Origin: Scenedesmus sp. PABB004 | Taxonomy: Eukaryota | DNA: 64,000 nucleotides | Assembly (NCBI GenBank): GCA_014905635.1 | Contig: JABVCE010000023.1 | Coordinates: forward strand, 434,001 to 498,000 | Direction: 5' to 3' | In this document: positions 28,339-60,174 of the stretch, one piece after another | How the letters are laid out: the number at the start of each line of letters is the position of its first letter | Numbering within the stretch: position 1 is the first letter of the stretch | Translations under genes and position numbers: made by a program | Notes under the pieces: model-generated | Seen by the model: the letters and a program-made list of their open reading frames with translations, nothing else | Databases searched by the model: none | What the model was told of the DNA's origin: nothing

Positions 28339-29974
28339 CTACTGCTCCGCCTGGCTGTCCGCCGCGATGACGAGCGGCTCGACGCTGTCGGACAGGCACG
28401 CGCCCCGTCGCCCGCCGCCCTGGCCGCGCGCCTCGTCCGCGGCGGTGGCGCGGGGCGGCGGTGCTGGGCGCCGCGGCGCGAGCGCGGAGAGGGCTGCCTC
28501 GTAGACTGCCAGCGTGACGGCGCTCTGCGGCATCACGCGCAGCAGGCTGGGCGGCAGGCCGCGGTAGAAGCCGGCCAGCCCCTCGCGCGCCCAGGTCGTG
28601 GTCAGCGCCTGCCAGGTGCTCGTGTAGAGCAGGGACCGCCCCTCGGCGCGCTGCTGCAGGCGCGCGCGCAGCACCTGCGCCGGGTACGTCGCGACCGCGG
28701 CGAGCAGCTTGGACGCCCCGCCCGCCGCCGACGCGGTCGCGGCGTCGAGGCCCGCCTCGGGCGCGTGCCCCGCGCGCGCGCGCCGGCACGCCGCGAGGTG
28801 CTTCAGCTCCTCGTACGCGGCAAACTGGATCGCGCCGTGGCTCGTTTGCTGCGGCCAGCGCCGCGCGGGCGCAGGCACGCCGGCGTCGGCGCGCGGCGCG
28901 CAGCGGCGCCGGAAGCGGCGCGCCCCCGCTGCCCCGCTGCCGGCCGTCCCGGCCCCCCGCGCCGCCGCGCCGCACCAGCAGCAGGGAGGGCGTGAAGCCG
29001 CGATAGTACCCCGCGAGGCCCTCGGCCCGCCAGATGACGGCCAGGGCGTGGAACATGCCCCGGTACGCCCCCGCGGCGCCCCCGCCCGCGGCGGCGCGGC
29101 TCTGCAGCGCAAGACGCGTCTTGACCAGCCAGATGGGGTTGGTCAGCACGCACACCTGGCCGGGCGCGCATGGGCGCGGGGGGTGGGCTCAGCGCGCAGC
29201 GACGGCGGGGGCGCGGCGCGGCGGCGGGGGCGGGGGCGCGGCGGCGCCCCGCCGCGCACCATCGCGCCCGCCTGCGCCGCGCTGGCGAGGTTCCAGGCAG
29301 TGCTCAGCCGCGCCGGCGGCGCGCCCGGCTGCGCGGTGCGGGCGCGGTGCCAGGCCTTGATCGCCTCGTACAGCGCCAGGTAGGCGCCCCACGACACCGC
29401 TGGCACGCGCGCCACGACACCGGCGGCCGCGGCCACGGCGGCAGCGCGTCAGGCGGGGCGGCGGCGCCGGCGCGCGGCCCCGCTGCGCCCCGCGCGCGAC
29501 CCGCGCTCACTCGAGCCGAGCAGCGAGGGCGTGAGCCCTGCGTACAGCCCCCGCCAGCCCTCACTCGCGACGATCGTGCGCACCGCGTGCGCCGTGCCGC
29601 GGTACTGCGGCAGCGCGCCCGGCAGCCCGTCCTGCACTGCGCGGCGGCGGACGTGGGTGCGGCGGCGCCGCCGCCGGGCGTCGGCGCTGGCGGCGAGCGG
29701 CCCGAGCGCGCGTCGGCCGCCCGCCCGTGGCCCGCCGCACCCTGCAGGCGCGTCTTCACGACGTCAAAGGGATGCAGCAGCAGCACCGCCGAACAGCCCG
29801 CCACGCCGCCGGCCACGAGGTGCGTCCTGCAGGCGCAGCACACAGCCCGGCGGCTGGGCGCGGCGCGCCGCGCCGAGCCCGCTGCTGCGCCGCCGCTGCC
29901 GCGCGCGCCGCGGCTCACCAGCTCCGCTGCTGCGGCTGCTCGCCGGCCTCCCCGCCCGCGCTTCCCCCCCCCAT
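28339..29974 (-). CDS. FOLT1: Mitochondrial carrier family protein, folate/FAD transporter (SLC25A32/FOLT1)-like
   Basis: Exon 1 MGGGSAGGEAGEQPQQRSW, then HLVAGGVAG...HPFDVVKTRLQ, TNPIWLVKTRL.LQ, SHGAIQFAAYEELK and TYPAQVLRARLQQR, typical of this subfamily. Confidence 0.85.
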
Positions 29975-30344: not shown

Positions 30345-30935
30345 GCGGCCCGAGCGCGCCGCGGTGGAGGCGGCCGCCGCCACGAGACTGCGCCGACGAC
30401 GTGGTGCGCGCTGGCGGCGCGACCGACCCGCCCGGCCGCCGCCGCCGCCGCCGCCGTGCTGGCCGGGCGTACGGCCCGGCGGCCTGGCCAGCACAAGTGC
30501 GAGCTCGGGGGCCCGCGCGCGCGGCTCGGCGGGCCCCACGGCAGCGCCCCTGCTGCCTTTAGGGGCGCGGCGCGCCGTCTCCTAGCGCCCGCTCCTTGCC
30601 GCGTGCCCCGCCGGCCTCGCGGCGCGCGTCAAAAGGCCGGGCAACTGGGCGCGTGCGCGCGCGAGAGCGGCGCGGCGGCAGCGGATGAGGGTTTGGCGAG
30701 ACCTGGCCGGCCAAGGTAGGTTCGGGCGCGCCGGCGCCCGGCGCCCCGCTGCAAGCCCGCGCCGCGCGCTCGGGCCCCACCCTCCCCGCTCGCCACCGCA
30801 CCACGGACCGCCGCCCAGCCCCCGCCGCGCGCCCGCGAGCCTGACCAGCAGCGCCCCGGCCGTCGCGCCGCGCGCAGCGCCGTCGCGCCGCTCGACACGA
30901 TGGCCTCCCAGCTGGTGCGTGCTCGGCGACCGCTG
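30345..30935 (+). repeat. Inverted duplicate of the Rubisco activase upstream region plus micro-exon 1 (MASQL); copy of 55189-55772
   Basis: Near-identical reverse complement of 55189-55772, with ATGGCCTCCCAGCTG|GTGCGT at 30900. Confidence 0.9.
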
Positions 30936-30965: not shown

Positions 30966-31438
30966 CAGCCTGCTGCGCGTGATGCCGCAGAGCGCCGTCA
31001 CGCTGGCAGTCTACGAGGCAGCCCTCTCCGCGCTCGCGCCGCGGCGCCCAGCACCGCCGCCCCGCGCCACCGCCGCGGACGAGGCGCGCGGCCAGGGCGG
31101 CGGGCGGCGGGGCGCGTGCCTGTCCGACAGCGTCGAGCCGCTCGTCATCGCGGCGGACAGCCAGGCGGAGCAGTAGCGGCGGCGCGCGCGTGCGGGCGGG
31201 CGCCGGGGGCGCGTGGCAACCTCGGCCGGGGCCCCGCCCCCTCGGGACGCGCGCGCGGCGCGGCCGGCGGCGCCGGGAGAGCAGAGCGCTGCCCGAGCGC
31301 CGCCCAGCCCAGGCCCACGGGGCTGATTCGCTGCGGCTGTCCGGCGCCGGCGGCGCCGGTGAACCGCGGCGGCGGATTCGAACGAAAGTCAGCTGCGGCA
31401 CCGCAGTCCCGCAGTCCCGCGCGGCGCCAGGCGACCCC
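30966..31438 (+). pseudogene. Inverted duplicate of the carrier 3' exon end and downstream flank (copy of 28077-28549)
   Basis: SLLRVMPQSAVTLAVYEAALSALAPRR...QAEQ* repeated on the + strand (stop at 31176). Both copies span about 473 bp with few substitutions. Confidence 0.88.
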
Positions 31439-31622: not shown

Positions 31623-34600
31623 ATGATGGAGCAGCAGCACGAGCGGCGGACGCGCCGCGCGGGCACGTCCGCGGCCAGCCACACGTAACCCGGGGGCGCC
31701 TCTGGGGGTGGCAGCGCTCTGTGTGTGGGTGTGGGTGTGTGCCGGCCGACCCCCGCGCCGCCGCCGCCCGCCCGCAGGCGGATCGCGCGCCGAGCGCGCG
31801 GCAGCGCGGCGGCGGCGCGGGGCCTGGCGGGCTCGGCGGCGCTCGTGCGCGCGCGCCTGCGCCCGCACCCGCTGCTGGCGGGCGTGCGGGGCCTGCCGGG
31901 ACGGCTCGCAGTGCGGCTGTGGGTCGGCGGTGCGCCGCGCGGCCGCGCAGGAGCGGCGGAGCTCATGGACGATGCGACCAGCGGCCCTGCGCCGCCCGGC
32001 ACGCGCCGCGTGCGCCGACCGGGCGCGCTGGCGGGCGCAGCGAGCGCGCCGCGCGCCCGCAGCGACGGCGGAGGAGGCGGCGGTGGCGGCGTCGCGGGCG
32101 CCGGCGACGACGACGACGGGAGCCAGCCGGCGCCAGCGGCGTCCTGCGGCAGCAGCGGCGACGCCGGCAGCGACGACCGCCGGCCGCGCAAGCGCGCTGC
32201 ACCGAGCAGCAGCGACTGCGGCAGCGGCGGTGGGGCCAAGCGCGCAGCACCGAGCAGCAGCGACTGCAGCGGCGGCATCGATGCACCTGCTGCCAGCGGC
32301 GGCAACGCCGGCGCGGCCGGCGCCGAGGCCGGCCAGCCGGCGGGCGCGGCGGCGCAGCAGCAGCCGGTGGCGCAGCAGCCAGCGCAGCAGCAGGCGGCGC
32401 AGCAGCAGCCGCCACAGCTGGCAGCTGCGGACGGTGGCCCGGTGCCCTGGGCTGAGCTGCCTGAGAAGATGGCGCGCGCTCGCGCAGGTGCGGCGCAGCT
32501 CGCGCACGAGCAGCTGATGGCCCTGCTGGCGCCGCCGCAGCCGCCGCCCCCGGAGCTCCTGCAGCCGAGGCACGGCTCATTCAAGTGCGGGGCGCTGCGG
32601 CAGCGCGCGGCTTTCCTCCAGCGCCGGCGCGCGGCTGCGGCGGCAGCGGCAGCGGAGGCGGCCCCGCCGGCTGAGGCGGTGGTGGAGCCACGCACGTGGC
32701 CCTGGCAGCGCGCAGCGCACCAGCAGGAGCTGGCGGCAGCAGCGCCGCCGTCGCCGCCGGCTGAGCCGGGCAGCCCTGCGGCCGCGGCGCAGCACAGCTG
32801 GGGCAGCGCCAGCCCCTCCCGCCTGTCCGAGCCGCCCGCACACCACGATGCCGCAGGCTACTGGGCGGCGCAGCACGTGGTGCCCGCCACGCCGCTGACG
32901 ACGCCGTGCCCTGCGCTGAACGCGGCCGCGGCGCCGACGGGCGGTCAGAGGCCGGAGCAGGAGACGCCGCTGGCGGGGCTGTGCTGGCAGCGCCCGGAGG
33001 GCAGCGCCGCGGCCGCCGCCGGCAGCGGTGGCCGCGAGCTGCCTGCAGGGCCGGAGCCAGCAGACGAGCAGCCTGAGCCAGCGCGCTCCATGCCAGTGGC
33101 AGCTGAGCAGGCCGGGCGGGAGGGCTGCCGGCAGCGGTCAGGCGGCAGCACGCCAGTGGCCGCGGCGCCCGGGGGCGACGCTGAGGCGCGCGCGTCGCCG
33201 CGGGCCAGCCAGGGCCCGCGTGCGCTGCCCGACGACGCGTGGGCCTCGCTGCCGAGCCGGCTGGTGCTGAGCCCGAACGAGGCAGAGTTCATGGCCCTGG
33301 TGGAGGAGGAGCACGCGGCGCGGCTGCACAGCTGGGTGGAGCCGCTCGTGCGCTCCGCGGCGGCAGGCGACGCGGACGCGGTCGCCCAGCTCGCGCTGGT
33401 CGGCCAGCTCGCGTTTGACCCGCGGCCGCTGGACGCGGACGCGCTCGCCGTCGCGCTCTCGCGCGGCGCGGACGGGCAGCGCTGCGTGGCGGCGCTCGTG
33501 TGCGCCGCGTGGGGGTCGCCGCACGCCGAGGACGCGGCGCGCCTCGCGCGCGCTGCGTGGGAGGCGGGGGCGCTGCCGGAGGGCGCGTGGGAGCTGCTGC
33601 GCGTGGGCGTGGGCGCGGAGCAGTTCAGGTACCGCGGCTGCGCAGCGGTGGGTGACTACCTGCTGCTGCTGCTGCTGGACTGCGTGGCCGCCACCAGCGC
33701 CGCCGCGCCGCACCTGCTGGAGCCGCCGCCTGGCGGCAGCCTCGAGCGCGAGGGCAGGCGGGCGCTGGCGGCGCTCACCTCTGCGCGGCGGGAGGCTGTG
33801 GAGCGCGTGGCCGCGGCACACCTGGGGGGCCTGCCGTTCCTGAGCCACCCAGCCAGCGAGGAGCAGGAGGCGACGCTGCAGGCGCTGCTGGTGCTGGCGC
33901 TGGCAGCGCCGGACGACGCGGAGCCGCGCACGTGGCCCTGGCAGCGCGCAGCGCACCAGCAGGAGCTGGCAGCAGCAGCGCCGCCGTCGCCGCCGTCGCC
34001 GCCGGCTGAGCCGGGCAGCCCTGCGGCCGCGGCGCAGCACAGCTGGGGCAGCGCCAGCCCCTCCCGCCTGTCCGAGCCGCCCGCACACCACGATGCCGCA
34101 GGCTACTGGGCGGCGCAGCACGTGGTGCCCGCCACGCCGCTGACGACGCCGTGCCCTGCGCTGAACGCGGCCGCGGCGCCGACGGGCGGTCAGAGGCCGG
34201 AGCAGGAGACGCCGCTGGCGGGGCTGTGCTGGCAGCGCCCGGAGGGCAGCGCCGCGGCCGCCGCCGGCAGCGGTGGCCGCGAGCTGCCTGCAGGGCCGGA
34301 GCCAGCAGACGAGCAGCCTGAGCCAGCGCGCTCCATGCCAGTGGCAGCTGAGCAGGCCGGGCGGGAGGGCTGCCGGCAGCGGTCAGGCGGCAGCACGCCA
34401 GTGGCCGCGGCGCCCGGGGGCGACGCTGAGGCGCGCGCGTCGCCGCGGGCCAGCCAGGGCCCGCGTGCGCTGCCCGACGACGCGTGGGCCTCGCTGCCGA
34501 GCCGGCTGGTGCTGAGCCCGAACGAGGCAGAGTTCATGGCCCTGGTGGAGGAGGAGCACGCGGCGCGGCTGCACAGCTGGGTGGAGCCGCTCGTGCGCTC

Positions 34601-36998
34601 CGCGGCGGCAGGCGACGCGGACGCGGTCGCCCAGCTCGCGCTGGTCGGCCAGCTCGCGTTTGACCCGCGGCCGCTGGACGCGGACGCGCTCGCCGTCGCG
34701 CTCTCGCGCGGCGCGGACGGGCAGCGCTGCGTGGCGGCGCTCGTGTGCGCCGCGTGGGGGTCGCCGCACGCCGAGGACGCGGCGCGCCTCGCGCGCGCTG
34801 CGTGGGAGGCGGGGGCGCTGCCGGAGGGCGCGTGGGAGCTGCTGCGCGTGGGCGTGGGCGCGGAGCAGTTCAGGTACCGCGGCTGCGCAGCGGTGGGTGA
34901 CTACCTGCTGCTGCTGCTGCTGGACTGCGTGGCCGCCACCAGCGCCGCCGCGCCGCACCTGCTGGAGCCGCCGCCTGGCGGCAGCCTCGAGCGCGAGGGC
35001 AGGCGGGCGCTGGCGGCGCTCACCTCTGCGCGGCGGGAGGCTGTGGAGCGCGTGGCCGCGGCACACCTGGGGGGCCTGCCGTTCCTGAGCCACCCAGCCA
35101 GCGAGGAGCAGGAGGCGACGCTGCAGGCGCTGCTGGTGCTGGCGCTGGCAGCGCCGGACGACGCGGAGCCGCGCACGTGGCCCTGGCAGCGCGCAGCGCA
35201 CCAGCAGGAGCTGGCAGCAGCAGCGCCGCCGTCGCCGCCGTCGCCGCCGGCTGAGCCGGGCAGCCCTGCGGCCGCGGCGCAGCACAGCTGGGGCAGCGCC
35301 AGCCCCTCCCGCCTGTCCGAGCCGCCCGCACACCACGATGCCGCAGGCTACTGGGCGGCGCAGCACGTGGTGCCCGCCACGCCGCTGACGACGCCGTGCC
35401 CTGCGCTGAACGCGGCCGCGGCGCCGACGGGCGGTCAGAGGCCGGAGCAGGAGACGCCGCTGGCGGGGCTGTGCTGGCAGCGCCCGGAGGGCAGCGCCGC
35501 GGCCGCCGCCGGCAGCGGTGGCCGCGAGCTGCCTGCAGGGCCGGAGCCAGCAGACGAGCAGCCTGAGCCAGCGCGCTCCATGCCAGTGGCAGCTGAGCAG
35601 GCCGGGCGGGAGGGCTGCCGGCAGCGGTCAGGCGGCAGCACGCCAGTGGCCGCGGCGCCCGGGGGCGACGCTGAGGCGCGCGCGTCGCCGCGGGCCAGCC
35701 AGGGCCCGCGTGCGCTGCCCGACGACGCGTGGGCCTCGCTGCCGAGCCGGCTGGTGCTGAGCCCGAACGAGGCAGAGTTCATGGCCCTGGTGGAGGAGGA
35801 GCACGCGGCGCGGCTGCACAGCTGGGTGGAGCCGCTCGTGCGCTCCGCGGCGGCAGGCGACGCGGACGCGGTCGCCCAGCTCGCGCTGGTCGGCCAGCTC
35901 GCGTTTGACCCGCGGCCGCTGGACGCGGACGCGCTCGCCGTCGCGCTCTCGCGCGGCGCGGACGGGCAGCGCTGCGTGGCGGCGCTCGTGTGCGCCGCGT
36001 GGGGGTCGCCGCACGCCGAGGACGCGGCGCGCCTCGCGCGCGCTGCGTGGGAGGCGGGGGCGCTGCCGGAGGGCGCGTGGGAGCTGCTGCGCGTGGGCGT
36101 GGGCGCGGAGCAGTTCAGGTACCGCGGCTGCGCAGCGGTGGGTGACTACCTGCTGCTGCTGCTGCTGGACTGCGTGGCCGCCACCAGCGCCGCCGCGCCG
36201 CACCTGCTGGAGCCGCCGCCTGGCGGCAGCCTCGAGCGCGAGGGCAGGCGGGCGCTGGCGGCGCTCACCTCTGCGCGGCGGGAGGCTGTGGAGCGCGTGG
36301 CCGCGGCACACCTGGGGGGCCTGCCGTTCCTGAGCCACCCAGCCAGCGAGGAGCAGGAGGCGACGCTGCAGGCGCTGCTGGTGCTGGCGCTGGCAGCGCC
36401 GGACGAGGCGGAGCCGCGCACGTGGCCCTGGCAGCGCGCAGTGGGCCAGCAGGAGCTGGCGGCAGCAGCGGTTGGGGCAGCAGCAGAACAGCTGCAGCAG
36501 CAGCAGCAGCAGCAGCGACAGCAGGATGATGAGCAGCAGGGCCCAGCGACGGCGTCGCCGGCAGGTGAGAAGAAGAGGCGCCGCCACAAGCGCCGCCGCA
36601 CGCAGGCGGGGGCGACGGAGGACGCTGCCAGCACGTCCGCGGCCGGGCGGCCGGCCGTGCTGTTGGCGCGCGCCGACCAGCAGGGCAACGCGGTGCTGGC
36701 GCACCGCGGCACGGTCGCGGTGCAGCCCGGCGAGACGCCGCCGTGCGCCGCAGCGTCGCCGCCCGGCCCGCCCGCGGCGGCGGCGGTTGCGGCGCCGCAC
36801 GGCGCGGTCGACTATCGCGCGCTGGCGGCTGCATACGTTGCGGCAAAGCGGGCCAGGCGCGAGGCGGCCGAGCAGCAGCCGCGCAAGCGCCGCCCGCCGC
36901 AGCGCGAGGTGACCGGCGCCGACCAGCAGCCGCGCCCCAAGCCGCTCCGGCGGCCCGCCACTCAGAAGGTGGGGCGGGAGCGCATTGACTGCTTCTGA
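31623..36998 (+). CDS. Large hypothetical protein with three tandem ~415-aa internal copies and NLS-like tracts
   Basis: Uninterrupted ORF 31725-36998. A plausible exon 1 at 31623-31684 splices in phase to 31778; an alternative start lies at 31966. No recognisable domain. Confidence 0.6.
32685..36441 (+). repeat. Tandem triplication; units start at 32685, 33921 and 35166 (1236, 1245 and 1245 bp), with a partial fourth start at 36411
   Basis: Identical ORF translations recur at +1245 offsets (32945/34190/35435). Each unit begins EPRTWPWQRA. Confidence 0.97.
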
Positions 36999-47306: not shown

Positions 47307-49925
47307 TCACCGGCGGGCATAGGCGGCGCTGCGCGCGCTCTGGCGCTGGCTGGCGGCGGCGGCCATGCGGCTGCGCATGTCCTCCACGCTGCCGCTGGTG
47401 GACTGGCCGATGTTGCCCAGAATCTCGGCCATCTGGCCGCGGCTGAAGTCGGCGAGCGTGAGCACCTTGGCCAGGCTGCTCACGAGCGAGTCCTTGGTCG
47501 CGTTGCGCATGGGGATGCCCTTCTTGCGCGCCAGCTCGGACAGGGTGTCGACCTTGAACACGGCCAGGTCAGACTCAAACACGGCGCCAGAGCCGCCCGA
47601 CGCGCCGCCGGCGCTGCTGCCGTTGCTGCGCGAGTAGCTGGCCCAGCGGTCGCCGCTCGCGGCGGCGGGGGCGGGGCTGGAGGTGCGCCAGCTGCTGGTG
47701 CTGGCCGCGGGCGCGGCAGAGTAGCCACCCTTGCCGACGGCGGAGGCCAGGTTCTTGCGCAGGCTGTCGACGTCGCGAGCGAGGGGAGAGCCCAGCTTGT
47801 TGGCCAGGTCCACGAGCATGCCTGCGGCGGGAGGGAGAAGGGCGGCGGGGCAGGCGGGCGTCAGCGCATGCCGGGCGGCCGTCGCGCAGCACGCCAGCGC
47901 GCGCAGCGGGCCAGGGCGCGCAGCGGGCCAGCGCGCGCAGCGCGCCAGAGCGGGGCCCAGCCGGCCGGGCCGACGCACCGCGGGTGAGGTCGTTCAGCGA
48001 CACGCCCTTGGCCACCAGGGCGCTGATGACGCCGTCCTTGGTGGGCTCGCGGGGCAGCTGGGCGCCGGTCTTGGACACCAGGTCGCGCAGGTCGTCGATG
48101 CGCAGCACGGTCAGGTCGGCGGCGCTCAGCTTGCTGCCGCTGGCGTTGTGGCTGCCGCTGCGGCGCCAGGAGGCAGACTTGGTCGCGCCCGCAGAGTAGG
48201 ACGACCAGCGGTCGCCGCCGGCCGGCGCGGCCACGGCCGGGGTGGAGCGCCAGCTCGAGGCCGAGGCGGACGAGCCACCGCTGCCGCCGACCACGCTGGA
48301 CAGGTTGCGGCGCAGGCCCTCGACGTCCTTGGCCAGGGGCGCGCCCAGCTTGGTGCAGAGGTCCACGAGCATGCCTGGAGGCGGGGCAGGCAGGCGGGGC
48401 AGCGCGTCAGCACGCGTGCAGGGCCCCCACACGGCAGCGCGCGGCTGGCGCGTGCGCTGGGCGGCGCAGGCGACCTGAGCAGCCCGAGGTCGCGGCGCGC
48501 GGCGCGCCCGGCAGCAGCCGGCGGGGCGGGCGCTCACCGCGGGTGAGGTCGTTGACCGACACGCCCTTGGTCAGCAGGGCGCTGATGACACTGTCGCGGG
48601 TGGGCTCGCGGGGCAGCTGGGCGCCGGTCTTGGACACCAGGTCGCGCAGGTCGTCGATGCGCAGCGCGGACAGGTCGCCGCTGCCGAGCTTGGCGCCGGG
48701 GCCGCCCGCGCCCGCCGCGGCGCGGCCGGTGCCGTTGGAGGAGGCGCCGGAGCTGTAGCTCGCGAAGCGGTCGGTGGTCGCGGGCGCGGCCGGGGTGGAG
48801 CGCCAGCTCGAGGGCGCGCTGCCGCCCGCGGCGGCGCTGGTCGCGCCGAGCTCGGCGAGCTGGCCCTTGGTGAGGTCGGACATCGACACGCCGGCCTGGA
48901 TCAGCGCGCGGGTCAGGCTGTCGCGCGTCGCGTTGCGGCCGGCCGTCACGCCGCGCTTGCCCGCAATCTCCACGAGGTCGACGATCTTGAACTTGGCGAG
49001 GTCGGACGCCGAGAGCGAGCCGCCGGCGCCGCCCGCCGCGGCGCGGGGCGCCGACGCGGAGGCGGCGCCGGTGTAGTTGGAGAAGCGGCCGCCCGAGGCG
49101 GGCGCGGAGGAGGAGCCGTAGCTGGAGCCGCCCGCGGCGCCGCCGTTGGCCTTGAGCTCGGCGAGCTGGCCCTTCGTGAGGTCGGACGCGGACACGCCGG
49201 CCTGGACGAGCGCGCGGGTCAGGCTGTCGCGCGTCGCGTTCCGGCCGGCCGACACGCCGCGCTTGCCCGCAATCTCCACGAGGTCGACGATCTTGAACGC
49301 CGCCAGGTCGGAGGCCGACAGCGTCTGCGCGGCGGGCGGCGGCGGGCGGCGGCGCGCGGGGGTGAGGCGCGCGCGCGGGCGGCGCGGGCGCGGCGCGGCG
49401 CGCGGGCAGCGCAGCCCCGCCCGCCGTCCAGGACCGCGCCGTCGGCGCGGCCCGGGGGCGCGGCGCCGTGTGGGCGGGCCGCGGGGCGCGCGCGCGGCGC
49501 AGGCGGGGCTGCCGCCCGAGGCAGCACGGCGCAGGCCGGCGGATACGCCCCGCGCGCGCGCGCCGGCGCCGCGATCGGCGCGTGGCGTGGCGCGGGAGCT
49601 CACCGCGGAGTAGCGCGCCACCACCAGGCCGCGGCTGGGGGTCGCCGCGGTGCGGGCGCTGCGGGCGGGCGGGCGACGCGGGGGCGCGTGAGGCCAAGCT
49701 CAACTACGGCAATTGCGGCGCCCGCGCGGCCCCCGCGGGCGCGCGGCGCCTGTAATTATCGGCGCCTCGCACCTGCCAGCGAGGCCCGCGCCAGCGCGCT
49801 TCTGCATCTGCGACGCGCGGGCGCGGCGCGTGAGCGGTGGATCGACGCAGCCCCCGGCGCGGGCGTGCGGCGCGCGATGGATGGCGCGCGCGGGCGCGCT
49901 GGCGGGCACTAACCAGGGCAGCCAT
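47307..49925 (-). CDS. Predicted chloroplast-targeted repeat protein (about 599 aa): five SAP/HeH-like modules with Trp-motif disordered linkers
   Basis: Exons 49925-49914, 49807-49773, 49658-49604, 49324-48538, 48374-47979 and 47821-47307 are all GT-AG and in phase (1800 nt). The N-terminus MAALMQKRAGAGLAGSARTAATPSRGLVVAR resembles a transit peptide. Confidence 0.82.
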
Positions 49926-50837
49926 TGGGGGCGGCGCGGGGCGACTGCTGCGCGCTCGGGAGGTGGGGTGGTGCGGCAGCGGCGCGGGGCGACTGCGCTG
50001 GGGGGCGGGGGGAGCGGCAGTGGCTCGGGCTGGGCGGCGCGAGCGAGTTTTGGGGGCGCCGCAAGGCGCATGGTAGCCTTTTAGGTAGGAGGGCCTTGTG
50101 CCTCAGGGTTCAACCCGATGAACTCGGCCCACGAGCCGCCCCAAATGCGCGCGACGTGTCGGGCGTTGCGTTCCGATCGCGCGCGAGCTCACAGCGCCGG
50201 CCGCGAGGGCCGGGGGCGCCGGGCGGGCGGCGGGATGGCAGCCATCGCGCGGCATCGGCGATCGCCCGGGAGCCGTGCCGGGCCGCCCTGCGCCCCGGAC
50301 CGCCGCGCTGAACTCTGGCACGGCGCCGCGCGGCGCGGCGGCCCGCGGGGAGGCCGCCTGGACGGCCGCCGCGCTCTGGACGCGCGGCCTGCCGCGTGTG
50401 CTGCGCGCGCCGCCGCCGACTCTTCGCCGGCTGGTCTGGGGCACGAGGAGCCCGTTACCCGTAATAGGAGCGCCAAAAAAGCCGCGCTCGCGGCCCGCCG
50501 CCGCATGCGCACGCGGCCGCTGCAGAGACGGTCCCCCGCTGCCCCCTGTTGCCCCGCCCGCGCCGCGCGCGCGGGTCCGGTGGTGCCTGCCGCCGCGCCC
50601 AAAAACTCCGCACCACGCCACGCAAATCGCCGCCAGCAGCCCCCGGGGCAGGGAGCGCGCGCGCCCCATCTTCATTCAGCTATGAATGAGCTCACGACCG
50701 GCGCGGACGCGCGCGGCGGCACGCGATGGGTGCCGCCGCGCCCCGGCCCGACAGTGCAGTGCAGTGCCGCCGCGCGCCAGCGGACGGGGGCTGGGGCCTG
50801 GCGGCCCGGGCGCCCCCGCCGCAGCGCCCGGGGGCGC

Positions 50838-53800
50838 TCACCAGCGCGAAGAGCTGGCGGCGCCGCGCGCGCTCTGGCGCTGGCTGGCGGCGGCGGCCAT
50901 GCGGCTGCGCATGTCCTCCACGCTGCCGCTGGTGGACTGGCCGATGTTGCCCAGAATCTCGGCCATCTGGCCGCGGCTGAAGTCGGCGAGCGTGAGCACC
51001 TTGGCCAGGCTGCTCACGAGCGAGTCCTTGGTCGCGTTGCGCATGGGGATGCCCTTCTTGCGCGCCAGCTCGGACAGGGTGTCGACCTTGAACACGGCCA
51101 GGTCAGACTCAAACACGGCGCCAGAGCCGCCCGACGCGCCGCCGGCGCTGCTGCCGCCGCTGCGCGAGTAGCTGGCCCAGCGGTCGCCGCTCGCGGCGGC
51201 GGCGGCGGGGGCGGGGCTGGAGGTGCGCCAGCTGCTGGTGCTGGCCGCGGGCGCGGCAGAGTAGCCGCCCTTGCCGACGGCGGAGGCCAGGTTCTTGCGC
51301 AGGCTGTCGACGTCGTTGGCCATCGGCGCGCCCAGCTTGTTGGCCAGCGTCACCAGCATGCCTGCGGCGGGAGGGAGAAGGGCGGCGGGGCAGGCGGGGC
51401 GTCAGCCCATGCCTGCGGCCGTCGCGCAGCGGGCCAGGGCGCGCAGCGCGCCAGAGCGGGGCCCAGCCGGCCGGGCCGACGCACCGCGGGTGAGGTCGTT
51501 CAGCGACGCGCCCTTGGCCACCAGGGCGCTGATGACGCCGTCCTTGGTGGGCTCGCGGGGCAGCGTGGCGCCGGTCTTGGACGCGAGGCTGCGCAGGTCG
51601 TCGATGGGCAGCGCAGCCAGGTCGCCCGCGCTCAGCTTGCTGCCGCTGGCGTTGTGGCTGCCGCTGCGGCGCCAGGAGGCAGACTTGGTCGCGCCCGCAG
51701 AGTAGGAGGCCCAGCGGTCGCCGCCGGCCGGCGCGGCCGCGGCCGGGGTGGAGCGCCAGCTCGCGGGCGGCAACTGGCTGGACGCCGGCGCGGGCGTCGG
51801 CGTCGCGCGCCAGGTGGCCGTGGCGGAGCCGGAGCCGCCGATGAGGGCGGCCAGCTCGGCGCGCGCGGCGTCGATGTCGCGCGAGAGCCCGGCCTTGCCA
51901 AGCTTGGTGCCCAGGTCCACGAGCTGGCCCTTGGTGAGGTCGGCCAGGCTCACGCCCGCCTTCACCAGCGCGGACGTGAGGCTGTCGCGCGTCGCGTTGC
52001 GGCCGGCCGTCACGCCGCGCTTGCCCGCAATCTCCACGAGGTCGGCGATCTTGAACGCCGCCAGGTCGCCCGCGCTGAGCAGGGCGCCGCCGGCGCCGCC
52101 CGCCGCCGCGGCGGGCGCGCTGCCGGCGCTGCTGCCGCGGCCGACGTTGGCCCAGCGGTCGCCGCCGCTGCTCGCGGCGGGCGCCGCGGGCGCGGGCGCG
52201 GGCGCCGAGTAGGACGCGCCGCCGGCCTTGAGCTCGGCGAGCTGGCCCTTGGTGAGGTCGGACGCGGACACGCCGGCCTTGAGCAGCGCGGACGTGAGGC
52301 TGTCGCGCGTCGCGTTGCGGCCGGCCGTCACGCCGCGCTTGCCCGCGATCTCCACGAGGTCAGCGATCTTGAACTTGGCGAGGTCGGACGCCGAGAGCGA
52401 GCCGCCGGCGCCGCCGGCCGCCGGGGCGGGGGCGGGCGCGGCCGCGCCGCGGCCGACGTTGGCCCAGCGGTCGCCGCCGGCCGCGGGCGCGGGCGCGGGC
52501 GCCGGCGCGGGCGCGCGCGGCGCCGGCGCGGGCGGCGCGGGCGCGGGCGTGTCGCGCCAGGTCGCGCGCGGGGGGTCGCGCTTGAGGTTGAGCCCCTTGG
52601 CGCCGGCGTAGGCCTCCGGCACGCTGCTGCCGTCGGTGCCGGCGAGCTCCGCGCCCGCGAGGTACGCGTCTGCGAGCTGCACGCGCTTGACGTTGTCCTG
52701 CTCGCCCACGAGCGCGCGGCCGTAGGTCATGAGCACGTCGGTGGTCATGCGGGGCTTCTCAAACTGCACCTTGCCCTCCTTGCTGTTGATGAGGCGCTTG
52801 TTTAGGTTCTCGTGACCGATCGACGCGACAAACTCGCGCACCTGCGCGGGCGCGGGGGCGCGTCAGCGCGCGAGCGCGTCAGCGCGGGCGCGGCGGCGCG
52901 GGCGCGGCGCGGGCGCGGCGCGGCGGCGAGTGCGGGCGCGGCGCGGTCGCGGCGCGGGCAGCGCTGGGCAGCGCTGGGCGGCGCGCGTCGGCGCGCGCCT
53001 TGTCGTCGTAGACGCGCGCGCGCAGGGCGCCGAAAAAGTCGATGCTCTGCCCCGGGAAGGCGTCGACGAGCATCTCGACGTCGCTGCGCGGCAGGCCGTC
53101 CTCCTGCGCGCGCGGCGCAGCGGCGCGGCGGCGCGGCGGCGCGGCGGCGGGGAGGCGGGGGTCGGCGGCGGCGCGACGCTGCGGCGCGACACTGCGGCGC
53201 GCGGCCGCGCGCCCCGCGCCCGCTGCGCGTGGCCCGCGCGCCGCGCCCCGCCGCGCCGCGCGCGCCTGGAAGATGCCCATGCACACGCCGATGCGGTCCT
53301 CGCGCGTGGGGTGCCAGTAGTACTTGTCCATGCGCCCGTCGCGGATGAGGGGGGCGTAGAGCGTGGAGAAGTCGTTGCCTGGGCGGTTGGGGTGAGGGGG
53401 TGAGGGGGTGAGACGGGGGAGGCAGAGAGGCAGAGGGCGGGGGTGGGCGCACGCGGGCGGCGGCGGCGCGCGCGCGGGTGGCGGCGCACGCGGGGGCCGG
53501 CGCGCGGCGCGCGCGCGGCGGCTCTCCACGCGGCGGCGGCTCCCCCCCCCCCCCTGCGCGGCGCGGCGGCCGAGGCGCACCGGTGCAGATGATGGGCACG
53601 CGGGGGATCTCCTCGTTCTTGTACACGCCCGGGAGCTGCACGTTGGTGGGGTTGTCGGCAATGTTCATCAGCGTCGCGTTGACCATCTGGTTGTTGACCT
53701 GCGGGGGTGAGGCGGAGAGGGCGCGGGCGCGCGCGGGCGCGCGGTGTCAGGTCGGGGCGCGCCGCGCGGCGCCGCCGCGCGCGGCCGGCCGCCGCGCCGC

Positions 53801-55224
53801 GCGCGGGCCGCGGCGTGCTGCCTGCCGCGCCGCACCGTGTACTGGGTTGAGAGGCCGAAGCGCCCCGCGCCGGCGTCGAGGTCGTTGATGAAGAGGGCGG
53901 TCATGCGGCCCTTCTTGATCATGTCGCTCGCCTCGCGGTAGCGCTGGCGCAGCAGCTTGGCGGGCTCGCCCGCGTTGCCCGACTCGAGCTCGCCCGCGCT
54001 CATGACGATGGGCGTGATGCCGAGCTTCTTGAACGCGAGCATGCACTGAAACGTCTTGCCCTGCGCGCGCGGGGCCAAGGCGAGAGAGGAGGGGGGGGGG
54101 GGGGGGGGGTGGAGAGGGGGCGGCCCGTCAGCCGCGGCACATACGCGGCGCCGGCGCCGGCGGCGGCGCGCCCGGCGCGCGCTGCACGCGCCCCGCGCGC
54201 GCTGCACGCGCCCCGCCCCGCGCGCCCCGCGCCGCGGCGCCGACCTGTCCCTTGCCGCCCCAGATGCCGAGGATGAGGGGGACCTTGATCTTGGGGAGGT
54301 TCATAAAGTTCTTGGCGATGTGGATGCTCAGCTTGTCCAGGAAGGCGGGGGAGATGTAGAAGCCGTCCTCAATGTTGCCCAGCGTGCGCTGCGCGGTGCT
54401 GATGTAGTCGGTCGAGCTCAGCACCGCGTTCTGCGTGCCAGCCGTCCCGCCCCAGCCCTGGAACAGCTCGTCCACCATGCCGCGCCCGCGCGCGATGTCT
54501 TGCTGCGCGCACGCGCGCCGGCGGCGGCGGCGGCGGCGGCGGCGCGTGGGCGGCGGCGGCGGCGGCGCGGGCGCGCGGGCGCGGCCGCGCGGCGCCGGCG
54601 TCGCCGCACCTGGTCGTCGGAGGTGTCGTTGCCGGCGTCCATGGCGGCCCAGCGGCCCTTGTGGGACTTGCCGCCGGCGTGCGCGACATTGCTCGAGCGC
54701 GGCGCGGCGGCCTGCGCGGCAGCAGCGGCGGGCGCGCACGCGCGTCGGCGGGCCGCCGATCGCCGCCGATCGCCTCGCGCACGTCCCCGCGCGCCCGGAC
54801 GCCAGAGCCCCGGGCGATCGGGGACTCCAGCCCGCCCTGGCGCGCCCTGAGCGGAGCGGCGCCGGATGCCCGGCCGCTGCCGATGCCCGAGGCCCGGCGA
54901 GCCCGCGACCTGGCCCACACACCCCGCACGCACCTTGGCACGCGCGCCGGGGGCCGCGCCGCTCCTGGCACTGCGGGGCAGCAGCAAGGGCGCGGCGTGA
55001 GGCCCGGCGCGGAATTGCGGCGCCTAGCGCGCCCGGGCGATGCGCGCGCGCGGCGCATTCGTGTCGCCGTCCCTCCCCCCGCACCTGGAGCCCAGGCCGG
55101 CCTGCTTCGCCACCTGCGCGCGCGGGGCGGGGCGGGCGAGTGCGTGGACGGGCGCCGTCGCGCCAATTGGGGCTCACCCCAGCCCCGCCAGCGGTCGCCG
55201 AGCACGCACCAGCTGGGAGGCCAT
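50838..55224 (-). CDS. RCA: Rubisco activase with a ~550-aa C-terminal repeat extension (about 960 aa total)
   Basis: Exons 55224-55210, 55113-55085, 54970-54934, 54711-54610, 54502-54245, 54060-53836, 53698-53581, 53378-53266, 53103-52999, 52841-51485 and 51361-50838. Motifs [75 protein letters not shown] and [19 protein letters not shown]. Confidence 0.95.
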
Positions 55225-56117
55225 CGTGTCGAGCGGCGCGACGGCGCTGCGCGCGGCGCGACGGCCGGGGCGCTGCTGGTCAGGCTCGCGGGCGCGCGGC
55301 CGGGGCTGCGCGGCGGTCCGTGGTGCGGCGGCGAGCGGGGAGGGTGGGGCCCGAGCGCGCGGCGCGGGCTTGCAGCGGGGCGCCGGGCGCCGGCGCGCCC
55401 GAACCTACCTCGGCCGGCCAGGTCTCGCCAAACCCTCATCCGCTGCCGCCGCGCCGCACTCGCGCGCGCACGCACCCAGTCGCCCGGCCTTTTGACGCGC
55501 GCCGCGAGGCCGGCGGGGCGCGCGGCAAGGAGCGGGCGCTAGGAGACGGCGCGCCGCGCCCCTAAAGGCAGCAGGGGCGCTGCCGTGGGGCCCGCCGAGC
55601 CGCGCGCGCGGGCCCCCGAGCTCGCGCTTGTGCTGGCCAGGCCGCCGGGCCGTACGTCCGGCCAGCACGGCGGCGGCGGCGGCCGGGCGCGTCAGTCGCG
55701 CCGCCAGCGCGCGCCACGCCGGCGCAGTCTCGTGGCGGCCGCCTCCACCGCGGCGCGGCGCGCTCGGGCCGCCAAACGTGATGCAACGTACGCGCAGTTT
55801 CCGCACACAGGCGCCGCGTCTTGACCGCACGACGAGGCTGACGTCGCACCGGGCGCAGCTCCGCGCCGCGCCGGCGCTCACACCGCAAACTGCCGCGGCA
55901 CGCCCCGCCGGCGCGTCGTCGTGAACAGATCCTGCGCCGCAGCCGCCGACGCCGCCTGCTGTGCAGCACCTGCAGCCCTGCATCAACTCAACTCGCGCGG
56001 CGTGCACGCGCGCGCCGGTGCCGCGTGGCGCCGCCCGCGCCGCGCAGCCAGGCCCGCCGCACGCGCCCCGCGGCGTGCCCCCTCAGCCCCCTGCCTCGTC
56101 CGCCTGGCGGGCCGCCA

Positions 56118-58055
56118 TCAGGGGGCCGCCTTGCACAGCTCCTCCAGCTGGCGCCACACGTCTGGCGGCGCGCCGGCGGGCGCCTGCGGGGCGGCGGTGG
56201 CGGCGGGCGCCCGCGCGCATGAGGGCAGCTTGGCGCGGGCGGGCCGCTCGCGCCCCGCGGCGCCGCACCTTGCTCCCCAGGTCGACCACTATGCTGGCGG
56301 CTCCCCCGATCTCGCAGATGAAGAGATATGTCAGCGCCGTCAGCGCCGTGAGGTGCAGCGCGCCCGCGGGGGTCAGGCCCTCGCAGCAGTCCTGCACCGC
56401 AAGCTGCCGCAGCTCCGTCAGGCGGGCGAACACGGTCTCCGCCTGGGCGTCGCTAATGCAGATGAGGCTGCCATGCCCGTATGCTGCGTCAGCCGGGTAG
56501 ACCACGCGAGCCAGATTCAGGCGTGTCAGGCGCGTCAGTGCCAGCAGCCCCTGCAGGCTCAGCGCCTCGCGCACGCTCACGTCGCTGCCGTACGCCAGCG
56601 TCAGCTCGCACAGCGCGGGGCACGCTGCGGCCAGGCAGTCCACGTCCGCCTGCGCCCCCGCCAGCTCGTCGTCGTCAAAAAAGCGCGACCCAAACGGAAT
56701 GTGCAGGTGCTGCAGGCGCGAAAACACACGGCCGGCAGGGAAGAGGTGCGCGCCCGTGCCGCGGAGCAGATACAAGTCATAATAGCCAGCGTACTCAAAC
56801 CCGGAGACAAAGCTGAGGCTCGTCAGCCGGCCGCTCAGCGCGGCCAGCGGCGCCCACGCGGCCGCAGGCAGCGGCTGCTCGTCGCCCAAGCGCCAGACGG
56901 TCAACTGCTCAAGCTGCGTGCGCGCGCCCACCGCCGCCAGCAGCGCGCCGCCCTGGGCGCCAAGGCCACACTCCAGGTGCCGCAGGCCCCTGCACGCCGT
57001 CAGCGTCGCCGGCGGCAGCTGCATCCCATCCAGCTCCAGCCACGTGAGGCCGGTCGGCAGCTGCGGCACCTGCACGGAGCCAGCCTGCACGCACAGCCCC
57101 AGCTCCGCCAGCGCAGTGAGAGCGCTCACGGGCGCCAGCGCCGCGCCTGCCGCGCTGCCCCCGCCCAGGGCCAGGCACGTGAGCTGCGTCAGGGCGCCGA
57201 CCGCCACGGCCAGGGCTGCCGTCTGCTCGCTGTTGGCGGCGTCACCATCCAGCTCCAGCTCCAGCCGCCGCAGGCGCGTCAGCGCGCCCAGCGACTCCAC
57301 CGCCGGCAGCGGCAGCCCGCACTCCTCCAGCTCCAGGCTGGTCAGCCGGCCCGCCAGCGGCGCCAGCGTGACACCGCCGAGCGTCACCAGGCCCACGCCC
57401 TGCAGGCGCAGCGCCTCCAGCCGCACCAGCACCTTGCAGGGCAGGGCGAGCGTGGCGCGCACCAGCGCCTCCACCTCCAGGCGCGCCACGTGCCCGCCGC
57501 GGGCACCCAGCCACGCCGCCAGGCTGTCGGCTTGGGGCTGCGTCGCCTCCTTCACAACGATGCTGGTCGTGGCAGCCGCGGCCGCGTCGCGCCAGTCGCT
57601 GCACGCCAGCGCGGCGCGAAGGCGGCCGGCGAGCGGCAGCCGCGCCAGCACGCCCGCCAGCAGCTCGCGCGGCAGGCCGCCCTGCACTTCGTTGCTGTCG
57701 TCCGCCTGCGCGTAGGCGCAAACGGCACAGGGCGCGACACGGCGTGTGAGGCCGGGCGCGCGGCGGCCGCGGCAGGGGCGGGCGCAGCGAGCAGCGCGCG
57801 CCGCCGCCGCTGCCGGGCGCGCGCCGCGCGCCGCGCGTGCCGCGGCGGGCCGCGGCAGCGCCAGGGCGGGCGAGCGGGACCGCGCCGGCCGCGAATCACG
57901 CGCGCCTGGCCCGCTCCCGCCCCGCCACAGCGCGCCAGCAGCCGCCCGCTGCTCGTGCGCGCCGAGCGCCCGCCCCCCGCTGCCCAGGCCGCCCCGCTCA
58001 CCGGCGGCGCGCGGGGCCGGTCGGGCGGCGCCTGGGCGGTGCGGGGGCTCGCCAT
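56118..58055 (-). CDS. F-box/leucine-rich-repeat protein, paralogue 3
   Basis: Exons about 58055-58002, 57705-56269 and 56183-56118. Same F-box-like and LRR sequence; last exon APAGAPPDVWRQLEELCKAAP*. Confidence 0.8.
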
Positions 58056-58523
58056 CGTGGCCGAGCGAGCGGGCGCGGCGGCGGCGGCGGCACGGCGCAG
58101 CGCGGCGCGCTGGGGTGGTCCGCTGCTCGCGGGGCGCGGCCGGCGGGGCTGGTGGTGGTGGTTGCAGAACCGGGCGGCTGGAGGATCGGCCCTGCGCCTC
58201 CGCTGTGCCGCCGCTCCCGGTGCGCCGCAGCGAGCGGCGGCGCGCGAGGGCTTTGCGGCCGGCGCGTGCGCCGCCGGGCTTGCTGGCCCGCCCCCGCGCT
58301 GCCGAGCACACACCTGAGCCAGCCCGCCGGCGCGCCACGCCACCGCACCGCTGTGCGCCCGCCCGCCTAGGCCTGCGGGATCTGCGCGCGCCAGGCCCGA
58401 CGCCCTGCGCCGCCCGCCGCCCCGCGCGCGCGCCCGGAGCGGGCACGGACTTGGCCGGAGGCGGTTCCGGCCGATGCTGGGGCGTTAGGGCCGGATCCCG
58501 GCTCGCAGAGCACACAGGCCGCG

Positions 58524-60174
58524 ATGCCCTACTGGCTCGTGTCGCTGCCCCTGCTCAAGGGCCGGCGCGACCACACGTGGGAGCTGCTGCAGGAGAAGAC
58601 GAGCTATGGCCAGCAGCTCAGCAGCAACGCCAAGCTGGAGGTGCCGGAGCTGCGCGTGGGCACGATAGACACGCTGCTGCAGCACAGCGACGACCTCGCC
58701 AAGGCGGCGGTCGGCGCGGAGGCGATCGTCGCCAAGATCCGGCGCACCGTCGCCGACATCGGCGGCGCGAGCGCGGTCGCGGGGCTCAAGGTGGAGGGCC
58801 TGCCGGTGGAGGGCTTCCTCAGCCGCTTCCGCTGGGACGAGCCCAAGTTCCCGCTGCGCCGCCCGCTCAAGGAGAGCCTGGACAAGATCACAGACATACT
58901 CGCGCGCCTCGAGGACGACCTCAAGGCGCGACACCACCACCCGCGCGCGCGCGCGCCGCACCGCGCCGCGGTCAACCGCGCACGCGGGGCGCGCGGCGCC
59001 GCGCGGCGCCCGACCCGCGCGCCCGCGCCGCGCCGCGCCGCGCCGCGGGCGGCCGCAGGTCAAGGTCGGCGAGTACAACACCGTGAAGAGCCAGATCAGC
59101 GCGGCGCTGCGCAAGGCGGGCGGCAGCCTCGCGGTGCGCGACATCGCGGGCGTCGTCTCGCCGGGCCACGTGGTCGACAGCGAGAACCTCACCACGCTCT
59201 TTGTGGTGGTCGGCAAGTTCGGGCTCAAGGAGTGGGAGGCAAGCTACGAGAGCCTCGCAGACTTTGTGGTGCGCCCCGGCAGCGGCCCCGGCAGCGGCGC
59301 CGACGCCGGCAGCGGCGCGCCGCGCGGCTCGCGGCCGCGCTCCCGCTCGCGCTGCCGCTCGCGCTGCCGCCCACGCCGCGCCGCGCCGCGCCGCGCCGCG
59401 GGGGTGTTTGCTGCTGCGCGGCGCGACAGGTCCCGCGCAGCAGCGTGGTGGTGGCGGAGGACGCCGACTACGCGCTCGTGCGCGTGGTGCTGTTCAGGCG
59501 CGTCGCCGACGACTTCAAGACCGCGGCGCGCGTGCGCGGCTTCCAGGTGCGCGCCCGCCCGGCGGCGGCGCGCGGCGCTGGGCGCTGCGCGCGCGCCGCC
59601 CCACGCTCCCGCCGCTGGTGCGGCGCGCAGGTCAAGGAGTACGTGCCGCCGCCGCCGGAGCAGCCCGACGCGCCGCCGACCGACCTGTCGCTCGCGCAGC
59701 TGCGCGCGGAGGGCGCGGCCAAGCAGGCGGCGCTGGGCAGCTGGTGCGCGGCCGCGTACGGCGAGGCGTTCAGCTGCCTCACGCACATGGCGGTCGTGCG
59801 GCTGTTTGTGGAGAGCATCCTGCGCTACGGCCTGCCGCCCGCGTTTGCCGCGGCCGTGGTGCGCCCGCTGCCAAAGATGGAGGCCCGCCTGCGCGCCGTG
59901 CTGGCCGCCGCGTTTGGCACGGGTGCGCGCGCGCGCCGCGCCGCGCGCCGCGCCCCGCGCGCCGCGCCGCGCGCCGCGCCCCGCGCGCCGCGCGCGCCGG
60001 CCAGCGCCGCGCGCCAGCAGCGGCGCCGTTGCCGCGCGCGCTCTCCCACCCCCGCGCCGCGCGCGGCCGGCGCCAGACGTGGCGTACTGGAAGGACGACG
60101 GCGCGGTGCCGGGGGGCCTGGGCAGCGAGCTGGACGCCTACCCCTACGTCAGCATCACGCTCGCGACCGACTGA
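58524..60174 (+). CDS. VHA-C: V-type H+-ATPase subunit C
   Basis: MPYWLVSLP, PELRVGTIDTLL..SDDL.K, FRWDEPKFP, GSLAVRD, DSENLTTLFVVV, VVPRSS, VRLFVESILRYGLPP and YPYVSI; four introns. Confidence 0.95.

Follow-up and report, generated by a model that had tools for sequence, protein, structure and literature searches.

What the repeated tryptophan- and arginine-containing motifs of two neighbouring algal proteins might contact is the question raised by the DNA analyzed here, a 64,000-nucleotide stretch of Scenedesmus sp. PABB004 (contig JABVCE010000023.1, positions 434,001 to 498,000; the whole of it is hereafter the window). One of the two is a Rubisco activase (Rca) paralogue with a C-terminal repeat tail, and the other a stand-alone, or free, protein. 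The original prediction had described two motif classes in their linkers, [S/T]WR (class 1) and DR[W/F] (class 2), and had read the first as resembling Rubisco-binding motifs and the second as a possible mimic of the activase N-terminal contact. The observation was confirmed, while the interpretation was partly supported. As judged by homologue comparison and structure prediction, the two classes are conserved short linear motifs in basic, predictedly disordered spacers joining SAP-like modules. The fusion of the tail to the activase is real and conserved.

Both proteins are encoded on the minus strand between 55224 and 47307, as two tandem, intron-bearing nuclear genes with the activase upstream and the free protein downstream. 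The AAA+ exons of the Rca paralogue were placed by tblastn with a 1107-residue Tetradesmus obliquus fusion (P0045) as the query, and its 5' exons were assigned by eye from GT..AG sites. The gene starts with an ATG at 55224 and ends in SSSRW before a stop codon at 50838-50840. The Walker region and the helical domain at the C-terminus of the activase are both intact, and the exon continuing into the tail matched the Pfam family RuBisCO_activase_AAA_helical (2.3e-09). The final two exons span 52841-51485 and 51361-50838, the former encoding linker L0, module 1, L1, module 2, L2 and half of module 3. The gene-level features are as follows.

50838..55224, minus strand: Rca paralogue with C-terminal repeat tail, approximately 960 residues (estimated)
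51485..52841, minus strand: exon running from the activase C-terminus into the tail, stop-free, within the open reading frame 51402-52841, with a GT donor after LNDLTRG in phase 1
51362..51484, minus strand: intron in tail module 3 (GTGCGT...CAG, phase 1), 98/100 identical to its counterpart in the free gene
47307..49807, minus strand: stand-alone five-module protein of 595 residues, five exons, all introns GT..AG

The exons of the free gene are 49807-49773, 49658-49604, 49324-48538, 48374-47979 and 47821-47307. The first 30 residues of its product, MQKRAGAGLAGSARTAATPSRGLVVARYSA, resemble a short transit peptide, with similar N-termini in the homologues P0001 and P0006, and the protein ends in AAYARR. 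Three introns (48537-48375, 47978-47822 and 51484-51362) are in phase 1 and lie inside modules, between LTRG and MLVDL, so that each internal exon codes for a spacer flanked by two half-modules, the second half of the preceding one and the first half of the one that follows. Many gene calls of relatives read through the module donor, ending in LTRGE or LTRGK followed by junk, and the position of the module intron is thus conserved.

Motifs were located by a six-frame scan and in the spliced translations. All nine [S/T]WR and eight [D/G]R[W/F] copies listed in the original prediction were found in the coding frames of the two genes: five [ST]WR and four DRW in the tail, and four SWR, two DRW, one DRF and one GRF in the free protein.

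52554..52562, minus strand: class 1 TWR (ATWRDTPAP), Rca tail, 12 residues past the last activase-like residues
51807..51815, minus strand: class 1 TWR (ATWRATP), Rca tail
51753..51761, minus strand: class 1 SWR (ASWRSTPA), Rca tail
51669..51677, minus strand: class 1b SWR (SASWRRSGS), Rca tail
51225..51233, minus strand: class 1 SWR, Rca tail
52464..52472, minus strand: class 2 DRW (GDRWANV), Rca tail
52152..52160, minus strand: class 2 DRW (GDRWANV), Rca tail
51711..51719, minus strand: class 2 DRW (GDRWASY), Rca tail
51177..51185, minus strand: class 2 DRW (GDRWASYS), Rca tail
50841..50849, minus strand: C-terminal SRW, Rca tail, abutting the stop codon
48800..48808, minus strand: class 1 SWR (SSWRSTPA), free protein
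48247..48255, minus strand: class 1 SWR (SSWRSTPA), free protein
48163..48171, minus strand: class 1b SWR (SASWRRSGS), free protein
47685..47693, minus strand: class 1 SWR (SSWRTSSP), free protein
49082..49090, minus strand: class 2 variant GRF (GGRFSNY), free protein
48764..48772, minus strand: class 2 variant DRF (DRFASY), free protein
48205..48213, minus strand: class 2 DRW (DRWSSYSAG), free protein
47643..47651, minus strand: class 2 DRW (DRWASYS), free protein

The consensus sequences were [S/T]-W-R-[S/T]-[S/T]-P, with the variant SASWRRSGS, and G-[D/G]-R-[W/F]-x-x-Y-S. Their order within the spacers is fixed: an [ST]WR is followed after 12–17 residues (31 in the first tail spacer) by a [DG]R[WF], and one spacer type has an additional SWR 13 residues beyond its class 2 copy. 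At the position of the first tail TWR (52554..52562), other activase fusions carry SWR, GWR or SWK.

Relatives were sought with a HMMER scan of 1.84 billion representatives, which returned 40 proteins at E 0.001 or better, and word-indexed searches contributed additional cluster representatives. Names were attached solely to hypothetical proteins, from Scenedesmus sp. NREL 46B-D3 and from Tetradesmus obliquus; on these sequence matches the family is small and so far named from Scenedesmaceae only. For P0006 and P0050, both of strain NREL 46B-D3, the longest contig has the same length of 626,841 bases, and the two may therefore be encoded on a single contig. A metagenome contig scan with a single-protein query gave three loci at 33% identity, of which the translated one (L003) was a spurious low-complexity match and was discarded.

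Loss of the Trp motifs in orthologues had been named beforehand as evidence against the original prediction, and the motifs proved to be conserved. In 11 clean homologues, 77 of the 78 tryptophans were adjacent to Arg or Lys (49 as W[RK] and 28 as RW), and 15 additional class 2 sites carried Phe. When the residues of the window proteins were scored over 12 orthologue comparisons, exact identity reached 121/136 aligned residues for [ST]WR and 88/113 for [DG]R[WF], where changes were mostly D/G or W/F; the corresponding values were 1080/1770 for other spacer residues and 2152/3123 for modules. For one spacer type, 25 non-identical copies were aligned; conservation was at least 90% for WRRSG, SGS and the YSAG glycine, and at least 60% for the S-YSA neighbours and SWRS.

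The C-termini follow a pattern of their own. An SRW or RRW terminus was present in P0008, P0015, P0037, P0045, P0046, P0050, P0060 and P0062. Every complete activase fusion seen ends in this way, as do some free forms (P0060 and P0050), while ARR ends the free forms P0001, P0007 and P0012 as well as the free gene in the window (47310-47318). The C-terminal SRW recalls the C-terminal placement of the Chlamydomonas motif.

A chance origin was also considered, with the motifs as a compositional by-product of very G+C-rich, low-complexity coding sequence. The G+C content of the window is 74–84%, TGG-CGN is common and [ST]WR occurs 80 times over the six frames; by contrast, seven of the nine DR[WF] in six frames of the window fall in the coding frames of these two genes. 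Trp was adjacent to Arg in 10/10 cases in the tail and 6/6 in the free protein, against shuffle means of 1.3 and 0.86, respectively, and none of 20,000 residue shuffles attained the observed value in either protein. Further, the motifs are retained by homologues that are visibly less rich in Ala, Gly and Arg. Because of this conservation, the chance explanation is refuted, and we regard its probability as negligible.

Copy number within the window is a different matter. The 3' approximately 920 bp of both genes (51761-50851 vs. 48255-47320), intron included, are 87–100 identical per 100 columns, mostly 97–100, whereas the upstream parts reach only 62–89 per 100 aligned columns. This alignment indicates a probable recent partial duplication or gene conversion between the neighbours. 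Since the 3' ends are near-identical, the two or three motif copies nearest the end of each gene effectively amount to one sequence counted twice, and conservation in other species is better evidence than the number of copies within the window.

Class 1 had been compared with the Rubisco-binding motif of Chlamydomonas, [D/N]W[R/K]xx[L/I/V/A], which occurs in EPYC1, SAGA1/2, RBMP1/2 and others (Meyer et al. 2020, PMC7673724, and the He et al. 2020 preprint) and for which Meyer et al. define a 0–6 scoring scheme. The W[R/K] core named in the original prediction agrees with that definition. In EPYC1 the motif forms a short helix that binds the Rubisco small-subunit helices. The WR/WK dipeptide was present in 9/9 class 1 copies, but the remaining positions did not follow: D/N at -1 in 0/9 (always S or T), L/I/V/A at +4 in 0/9 (P, G or S instead), D/E or the C-terminus at +5 in 0/9, D/E within XX in 1/9, P at -3/-2 in 2/9 and R/K at -8..-6 in 1/9. 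The nine copies thus scored 0–1 of 6, and 49 homologue copies scored 0 (31 copies), 1 (13), 2 (3) or 3 (2). Moreover, 7/9 class 1 copies have a Pro within +3..+5, which makes an EPYC1-like helix unlikely. By these sequence criteria, class 1 is a different motif sharing only the WR dipeptide with that of Chlamydomonas, and the proposed resemblance holds for the core and not for the full definition. The He 2020 preprint, Atkinson 2019 and the KEY1 paper did not show the SASWRDAAP-like string attributed to EPYC1, which was neither confirmed nor rejected.

In style there are further parallels to the Chlamydomonas motif proteins: a central Trp followed by Arg/Lys, repetition within a basic and disordered protein rich in Ser, Ala and Pro, the occurrence of one motif family in several proteins and, in some, a Trp motif at the exact C-terminus (here SRW). 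Unlike them, the carriers in this family are approximately 60% folded modules, and homology between the two groups is not detectable.

For class 2, the point of comparison is the N-terminal segment of activase itself. Both Trp-9 and Ser-19 of the Chlamydomonas Rca N-domain are required for Rubisco binding and for partitioning into EPYC1–Rubisco condensates, and the 61-residue N-domain is by itself enough to target a foreign protein to them (How et al. 2026, PMC13172511). Substitution of Trp-9 abolishes Rubisco binding in that study, which bears out the importance assigned to this residue in the original prediction. The segment is also found in the Rca paralogue of the window, by six-frame scan and tblastn, and in eight other algal activases.

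54649..54657, minus strand: activase N-terminal GRW (KGRWAAM)

GRW was present in 9/9 algal activase N-termini compared, with GRWxx[M/I]DAGxDxSDDQQDI as the lineage consensus. Some class 2 copies have in common with this segment the Arg and Trp, Ala at +1, a hydrophobic +3 position, Ala-Gly at +5/+6 and Ser at +10. Y or V occupied +3 in 8/8 class 2 copies, and A-G occupied +5/+6 in 2/8 (DRWASYSAG and DRWSSYSAG), A-G being confined to copies that precede the SASWRRSGS block. None has the acidic SDDQQD run, and all lie in C-terminal spacers rather than N-terminal of the AAA+ body. The proposed mimicry is backed by a resemblance that goes beyond three letters, but the acidic run is absent and A-G is confined to two copies; the likeness covers approximately 6/14 positions and was noticed post hoc. 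The sticker result of How et al. (2026) makes the idea biologically reasonable, for what is still a post hoc resemblance.

The setting of the motifs was explored with an AlphaFold2 model of 360 tail residues built on 28 aligned sequences. Three compact helical units were predicted, with predicted local distance difference test (pLDDT) values of 90–96, separated by spacers below 50–60. The tail modules are the following.

52218..52397, minus strand: tail module 1, short form, pLDDT 91–96
51834..52079, minus strand: tail module 2, long form with two helix-extended-helix halves, pLDDT 90–95
51264..51635, minus strand: tail module 3, intron-spanning
50874..51113, minus strand: tail module 4, terminal type

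A full module consists of two helix-extended-helix (HeH) halves, most of the second being absent from short modules. The free protein has five modules and the tail four, drawn from the same module set. Spacers of 41–66 residues, composed almost entirely of Ala, Ser, Gly, Pro, Arg, Thr and Trp, separate them; they account for 200/565 residues in the free protein and 234/539 in the tail, the remainder being folded module. The isoelectric point (pI) was 10.26 for the mature free protein, 10.42 for the tail and 11.6–11.8 for the spacers alone.

Every motif copy in the model fell in low-confidence coil (pLDDT of motif residues, 37–60). This bears on a reading in which the Trp-Arg motifs are ligands of the SAP-like modules, so that the free protein, the tail and a starch-binding giant relative (P0002, below) form a network among themselves and Rubisco is recruited otherwise. 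Motifs and modules always co-occur in linker-type and activase-type members, and P0002, with modules only, could dock onto motif-bearing partners; the 360-residue model, however, docked no spacer on a module, and we consider such a network distinctly unlikely.

We assign the modules to a SAP-like fold with moderate confidence, on the model and on profile matches. In the window proteins, Rho_N reached 24.4 bits against a Pfam cut-off of 24.9 and SAP was likewise sub-threshold, while the relative P0002 gave SAP_new25 at 42.5 bits against a cut-off of 26.3. A structural search (VIA-align) returned weak matches to the Rho N-domain and PIAS1 SAP (both Z 4.8) and to further domains of SAP, LEM and Ku70 type (Z 3.1–4.6), as well as to SIZ1, FAN1, Hcc-1 and Tho1; for tail module 2, matches of SAP/Rho_N type ranged over Z 3.4–5.8. 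With the 360-residue model as query, Foldseek detected nothing in the PDB at E 0.001 or better, a PDB sequence search with module 2 gave nothing meaningful (best E 0.15), and the ESM Atlas held no usable match for the first large exon of the free protein.

Since the domains most similar in fold and family are HeH domains that bind nucleic acid (SAP, the Rho N-terminal domain and LEM), the family might have nothing to do with the pyrenoid: the modules would bind nucleic acid and tether activase, or themselves, to nucleoids or RNA, with the motifs serving that role. These matches are weak, however, and the window proteins stay below the Rho_N cut-off. In addition, fusion to a Rubisco chaperone and, in a relative, to a starch-binding domain suggests a Rubisco–starch compartment. 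A nucleic-acid role is, in our view, very unlikely.

The relatives show that the modules occur in three architectures, namely stand-alone proteins, activase fusions and a CBM_20 giant. Stand-alone members with a transit-peptide-like start include P0001, P0006, P0007, P0057 and P0060. Two activase fusions were full-length, P0045 of T. obliquus (1107 residues, five modules) and P0046 (1023 residues, on a 3386-nt contig); as 3386 nt is too short for introns, P0046 probably derives from a transcript. Other fusions or fragments thereof were P0005, P0008, P0031, P0042 and P0052. T. obliquus also has canonical activases of 406–417 residues that end exactly where the tail starts, and the long form is therefore a paralogue rather than the sole activase; diagnostic positions differ between the canonical P0086, P0089 and P0090 and the fusion P0045.

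Several other long activases were inspected and set aside. Those of Chlorella vulgaris (1118 residues), Haematococcus (704 residues) and Scenedesmus sp. PABB004 (751 residues), together with P0174 (550 residues), owe their length to an N-terminal extension or intron read-through; all have a normal C-terminus and no tail of the module type.

The third architecture is represented by P0002 (2531 residues, on an 8020-nt contig), which combines a CBM_20 domain (2.5e-15), an acidic helical stretch and approximately 20 modules, at 32% identity. It has no WR or DRW and a single SWPTPAAP. By analogy with the build of Chlamydomonas SAGA1/2, P0002 is a candidate starch-sheath tether. Modules that occur without the motifs must have a function of their own, and are an equally good candidate for the Rubisco contact.

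This leads to the main rival, a strong one to which we nevertheless give rather less than an even chance: the folded SAP-like modules would bind Rubisco, following the logic of CcmM and activase-SSUL, and the motifs would provide homotypic aromatic-arginine tuning or phospho-switches. Its best support is P0002, in which CBM_20 and approximately 20 modules without W motifs make up the build expected of a starch-to-matrix tether. The modules are also confidently folded, repeated four or five times with linker-like spacing, and drawn from one set common to the free protein and the activase tail; moreover, PYCO1 provides a precedent for a Rubisco motif and a homotypic motif in one linker (PMC10288592). 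On the other hand, nothing is known to connect an SAP/HeH-type fold to Rubisco binding, the fold matches are weak (Z 3.4–5.8), and P0002 is only 32% identical. The motifs, too, are at least as conserved as the modules (121/136 vs. 2152/3123), which exceeds the need of a generic aromatic-arginine grammar.

The CcmM comparison is one of architecture and presumed logic. Cyanobacterial CcmM is reported to carry tandem SSUL modules, and activase-like proteins are said to bear a C-terminal SSUL, in work ascribed to Flecken et al. in 2020. In both cases a scaffold of folded modules with flexible linkers is accompanied by an activase bearing the same module at its C-terminus. The modules here differ in being all-helical and, by prediction, SAP-like, in belonging to eukaryotic, nuclear-encoded, intron-bearing genes and in having linkers with conserved motifs. 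No RuBisCO_small Pfam match was obtained at E up to 1 or, in a second scan, up to 0.1.

In PYCO1 of the diatom Phaeodactylum, Rubisco binding requires a Trp motif with basic residues and Ser/Pro on its flanks, KWSPR, whereas homotypic contacts are made by a Tyr motif, GTGYNP (Oh et al. 2023, PMC10288592). The presence of two repeated aromatic sticker classes, whose counterparts here would be SWRSTP and DR[W/F]xxYS, makes it, by analogy, a closer parallel in style than the Chlamydomonas motif. The order of residues is different, and PYCO1 belongs to an unrelated lineage with red-type Rubisco, with neither folded modules nor a link to activase. Short basic and aromatic motifs also serve as Rubisco contacts in SUPA1 of Ulva (2026 preprint 10.64898/2026.07.16.738900). 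SUPA1 and CsLinker of Chlorella (Barrett et al. 2024, PMC11570498) resemble the present family in being basic green-algal repeat proteins with five or six evenly spaced binding elements, which make contact through basic residues together with a single aromatic or hydrophobic one. Unlike it, they are almost wholly disordered, with approximately 10-residue helices or folding on binding, and they have no sequence similarity to it, no activase fusion and no Trp-centred motif.

We also compared both window proteins with the FLIPPer description of a linker, namely at least three repeats, structured elements 20–120 residues apart, a pI above 8 and a largely disordered chain (Barrett et al. 2024, PMC11570498). 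Five and four modules with 41–66-residue spacers agree with the repeat spacing, and the pI values agree as well, but folded modules form the majority of both proteins, which are thus not largely disordered. Three of the four supplementary files of Barrett 2024 (file 1 being outside the search) had no entry for Scenedesmus, Tetradesmus, Desmodesmus, Raphidocelis or Monoraphidium, and a 2026 review names only EPYC1, CsLinker, PYCO1 and RbcS-STAR. A literature search made mainly in openly accessible papers turned up no account of this family, of a Sphaeropleales linker or of a eukaryotic activase-scaffold fusion.

Taken together, a chloroplast and pyrenoid location, Rubisco binding and regulation are what we infer for the family. 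Our tentative preference, which we hold at somewhat less than an even chance, is that the Trp-Arg motifs are multivalent Rubisco contacts, with the free protein acting as a matrix linker and the tail keeping the activase hexamer in the matrix. The motifs would act as low-affinity, multivalent stickers on Rubisco. The free protein, targeted to the chloroplast, would cross-link Rubisco holoenzymes into the pyrenoid matrix, and the activase hexamer, with its six tails, would be retained there beside its substrate. Class 2 would re-use the kind of Rubisco contact made by the activase N-terminal GRW segment, and phosphorylation of the Ser/Thr around every Trp (S/T-P and RRxS contexts) might switch the contacts off.

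Several observations weigh against motifs as the Rubisco contacts. P0002 has approximately 20 modules and lacks the WR/DRW motifs altogether. One spacer type is conserved over approximately 30 contiguous residues into the next module, a longer stretch than a sticker consisting of a dipeptide would require, so that some of the class 2 and class 1b sequence may extend a module instead of forming free-standing stickers. Distant members retain the Trp and lose the Arg, as in GDWANY of P0034 and PAWTP of P0036. With class 1 scores of 0–1 of 6, the analogy with the Chlamydomonas motif rests on one dipeptide, and the motif copies within the window, given their duplication origin, are not independent.

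Elsewhere within the 64-kb window there was no further activase or module gene. A 593-bp inverted duplicate, 95% identical, comprises the activase first exon and its upstream region (55189-55772 and 30345-30935, approximately 24 kb apart). A tandem repeat at 32684-36470, with three copies of an approximately 1.24-kb unit that are 98.8–99.4% identical, lies in a long open frame (31689-36995, plus strand), and an inverted repeat of 439 bp (99% identical) is located at 28077-28515 and 31000-31438. Three paralogous open frames (1676-3358, plus strand; 16811-18226 and 56086-58554, both minus strand) have a similar start, DDSNGEQGGLPRELLAGVLARLP, followed by leucine-rich repeats, and look, from their sequences, like a dispersed gene family beside the activase locus.

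Scenedesmaceae are widely grown industrial algae, and crop engineering aims to condense Rubisco. The Rubisco linkers known to date come from few lineages (EPYC1, CsLinker, SUPA1, PYCO1 and hornwort RbcS-STAR); since they share no sequence, each new one shows another way to condense Rubisco, and the family described here is a testable linker candidate for Scenedesmaceae. In a broader scenario, which we think unlikely as a whole, the Scenedesmaceae pyrenoid would be a fourth independent green-algal system, in which an activase hexamer with six multivalent tails is itself the scaffold. The spacer sticker G-D-R-W-x-x-Y-S-A-G would then be an iterated copy, or a convergent mimic, of the activase N-terminal Trp segment, a chaperone–substrate contact that was recruited and spread to a free linker encoded next door. 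If the proposed role is true, this would represent the first case, in the literature searched, of scaffold repeats fused to an activase in a eukaryote, and it would offer a concrete hypothesis for how activase enters the pyrenoid, building on the N-terminal Trp sticker of How et al. 2026 (PMC13172511).

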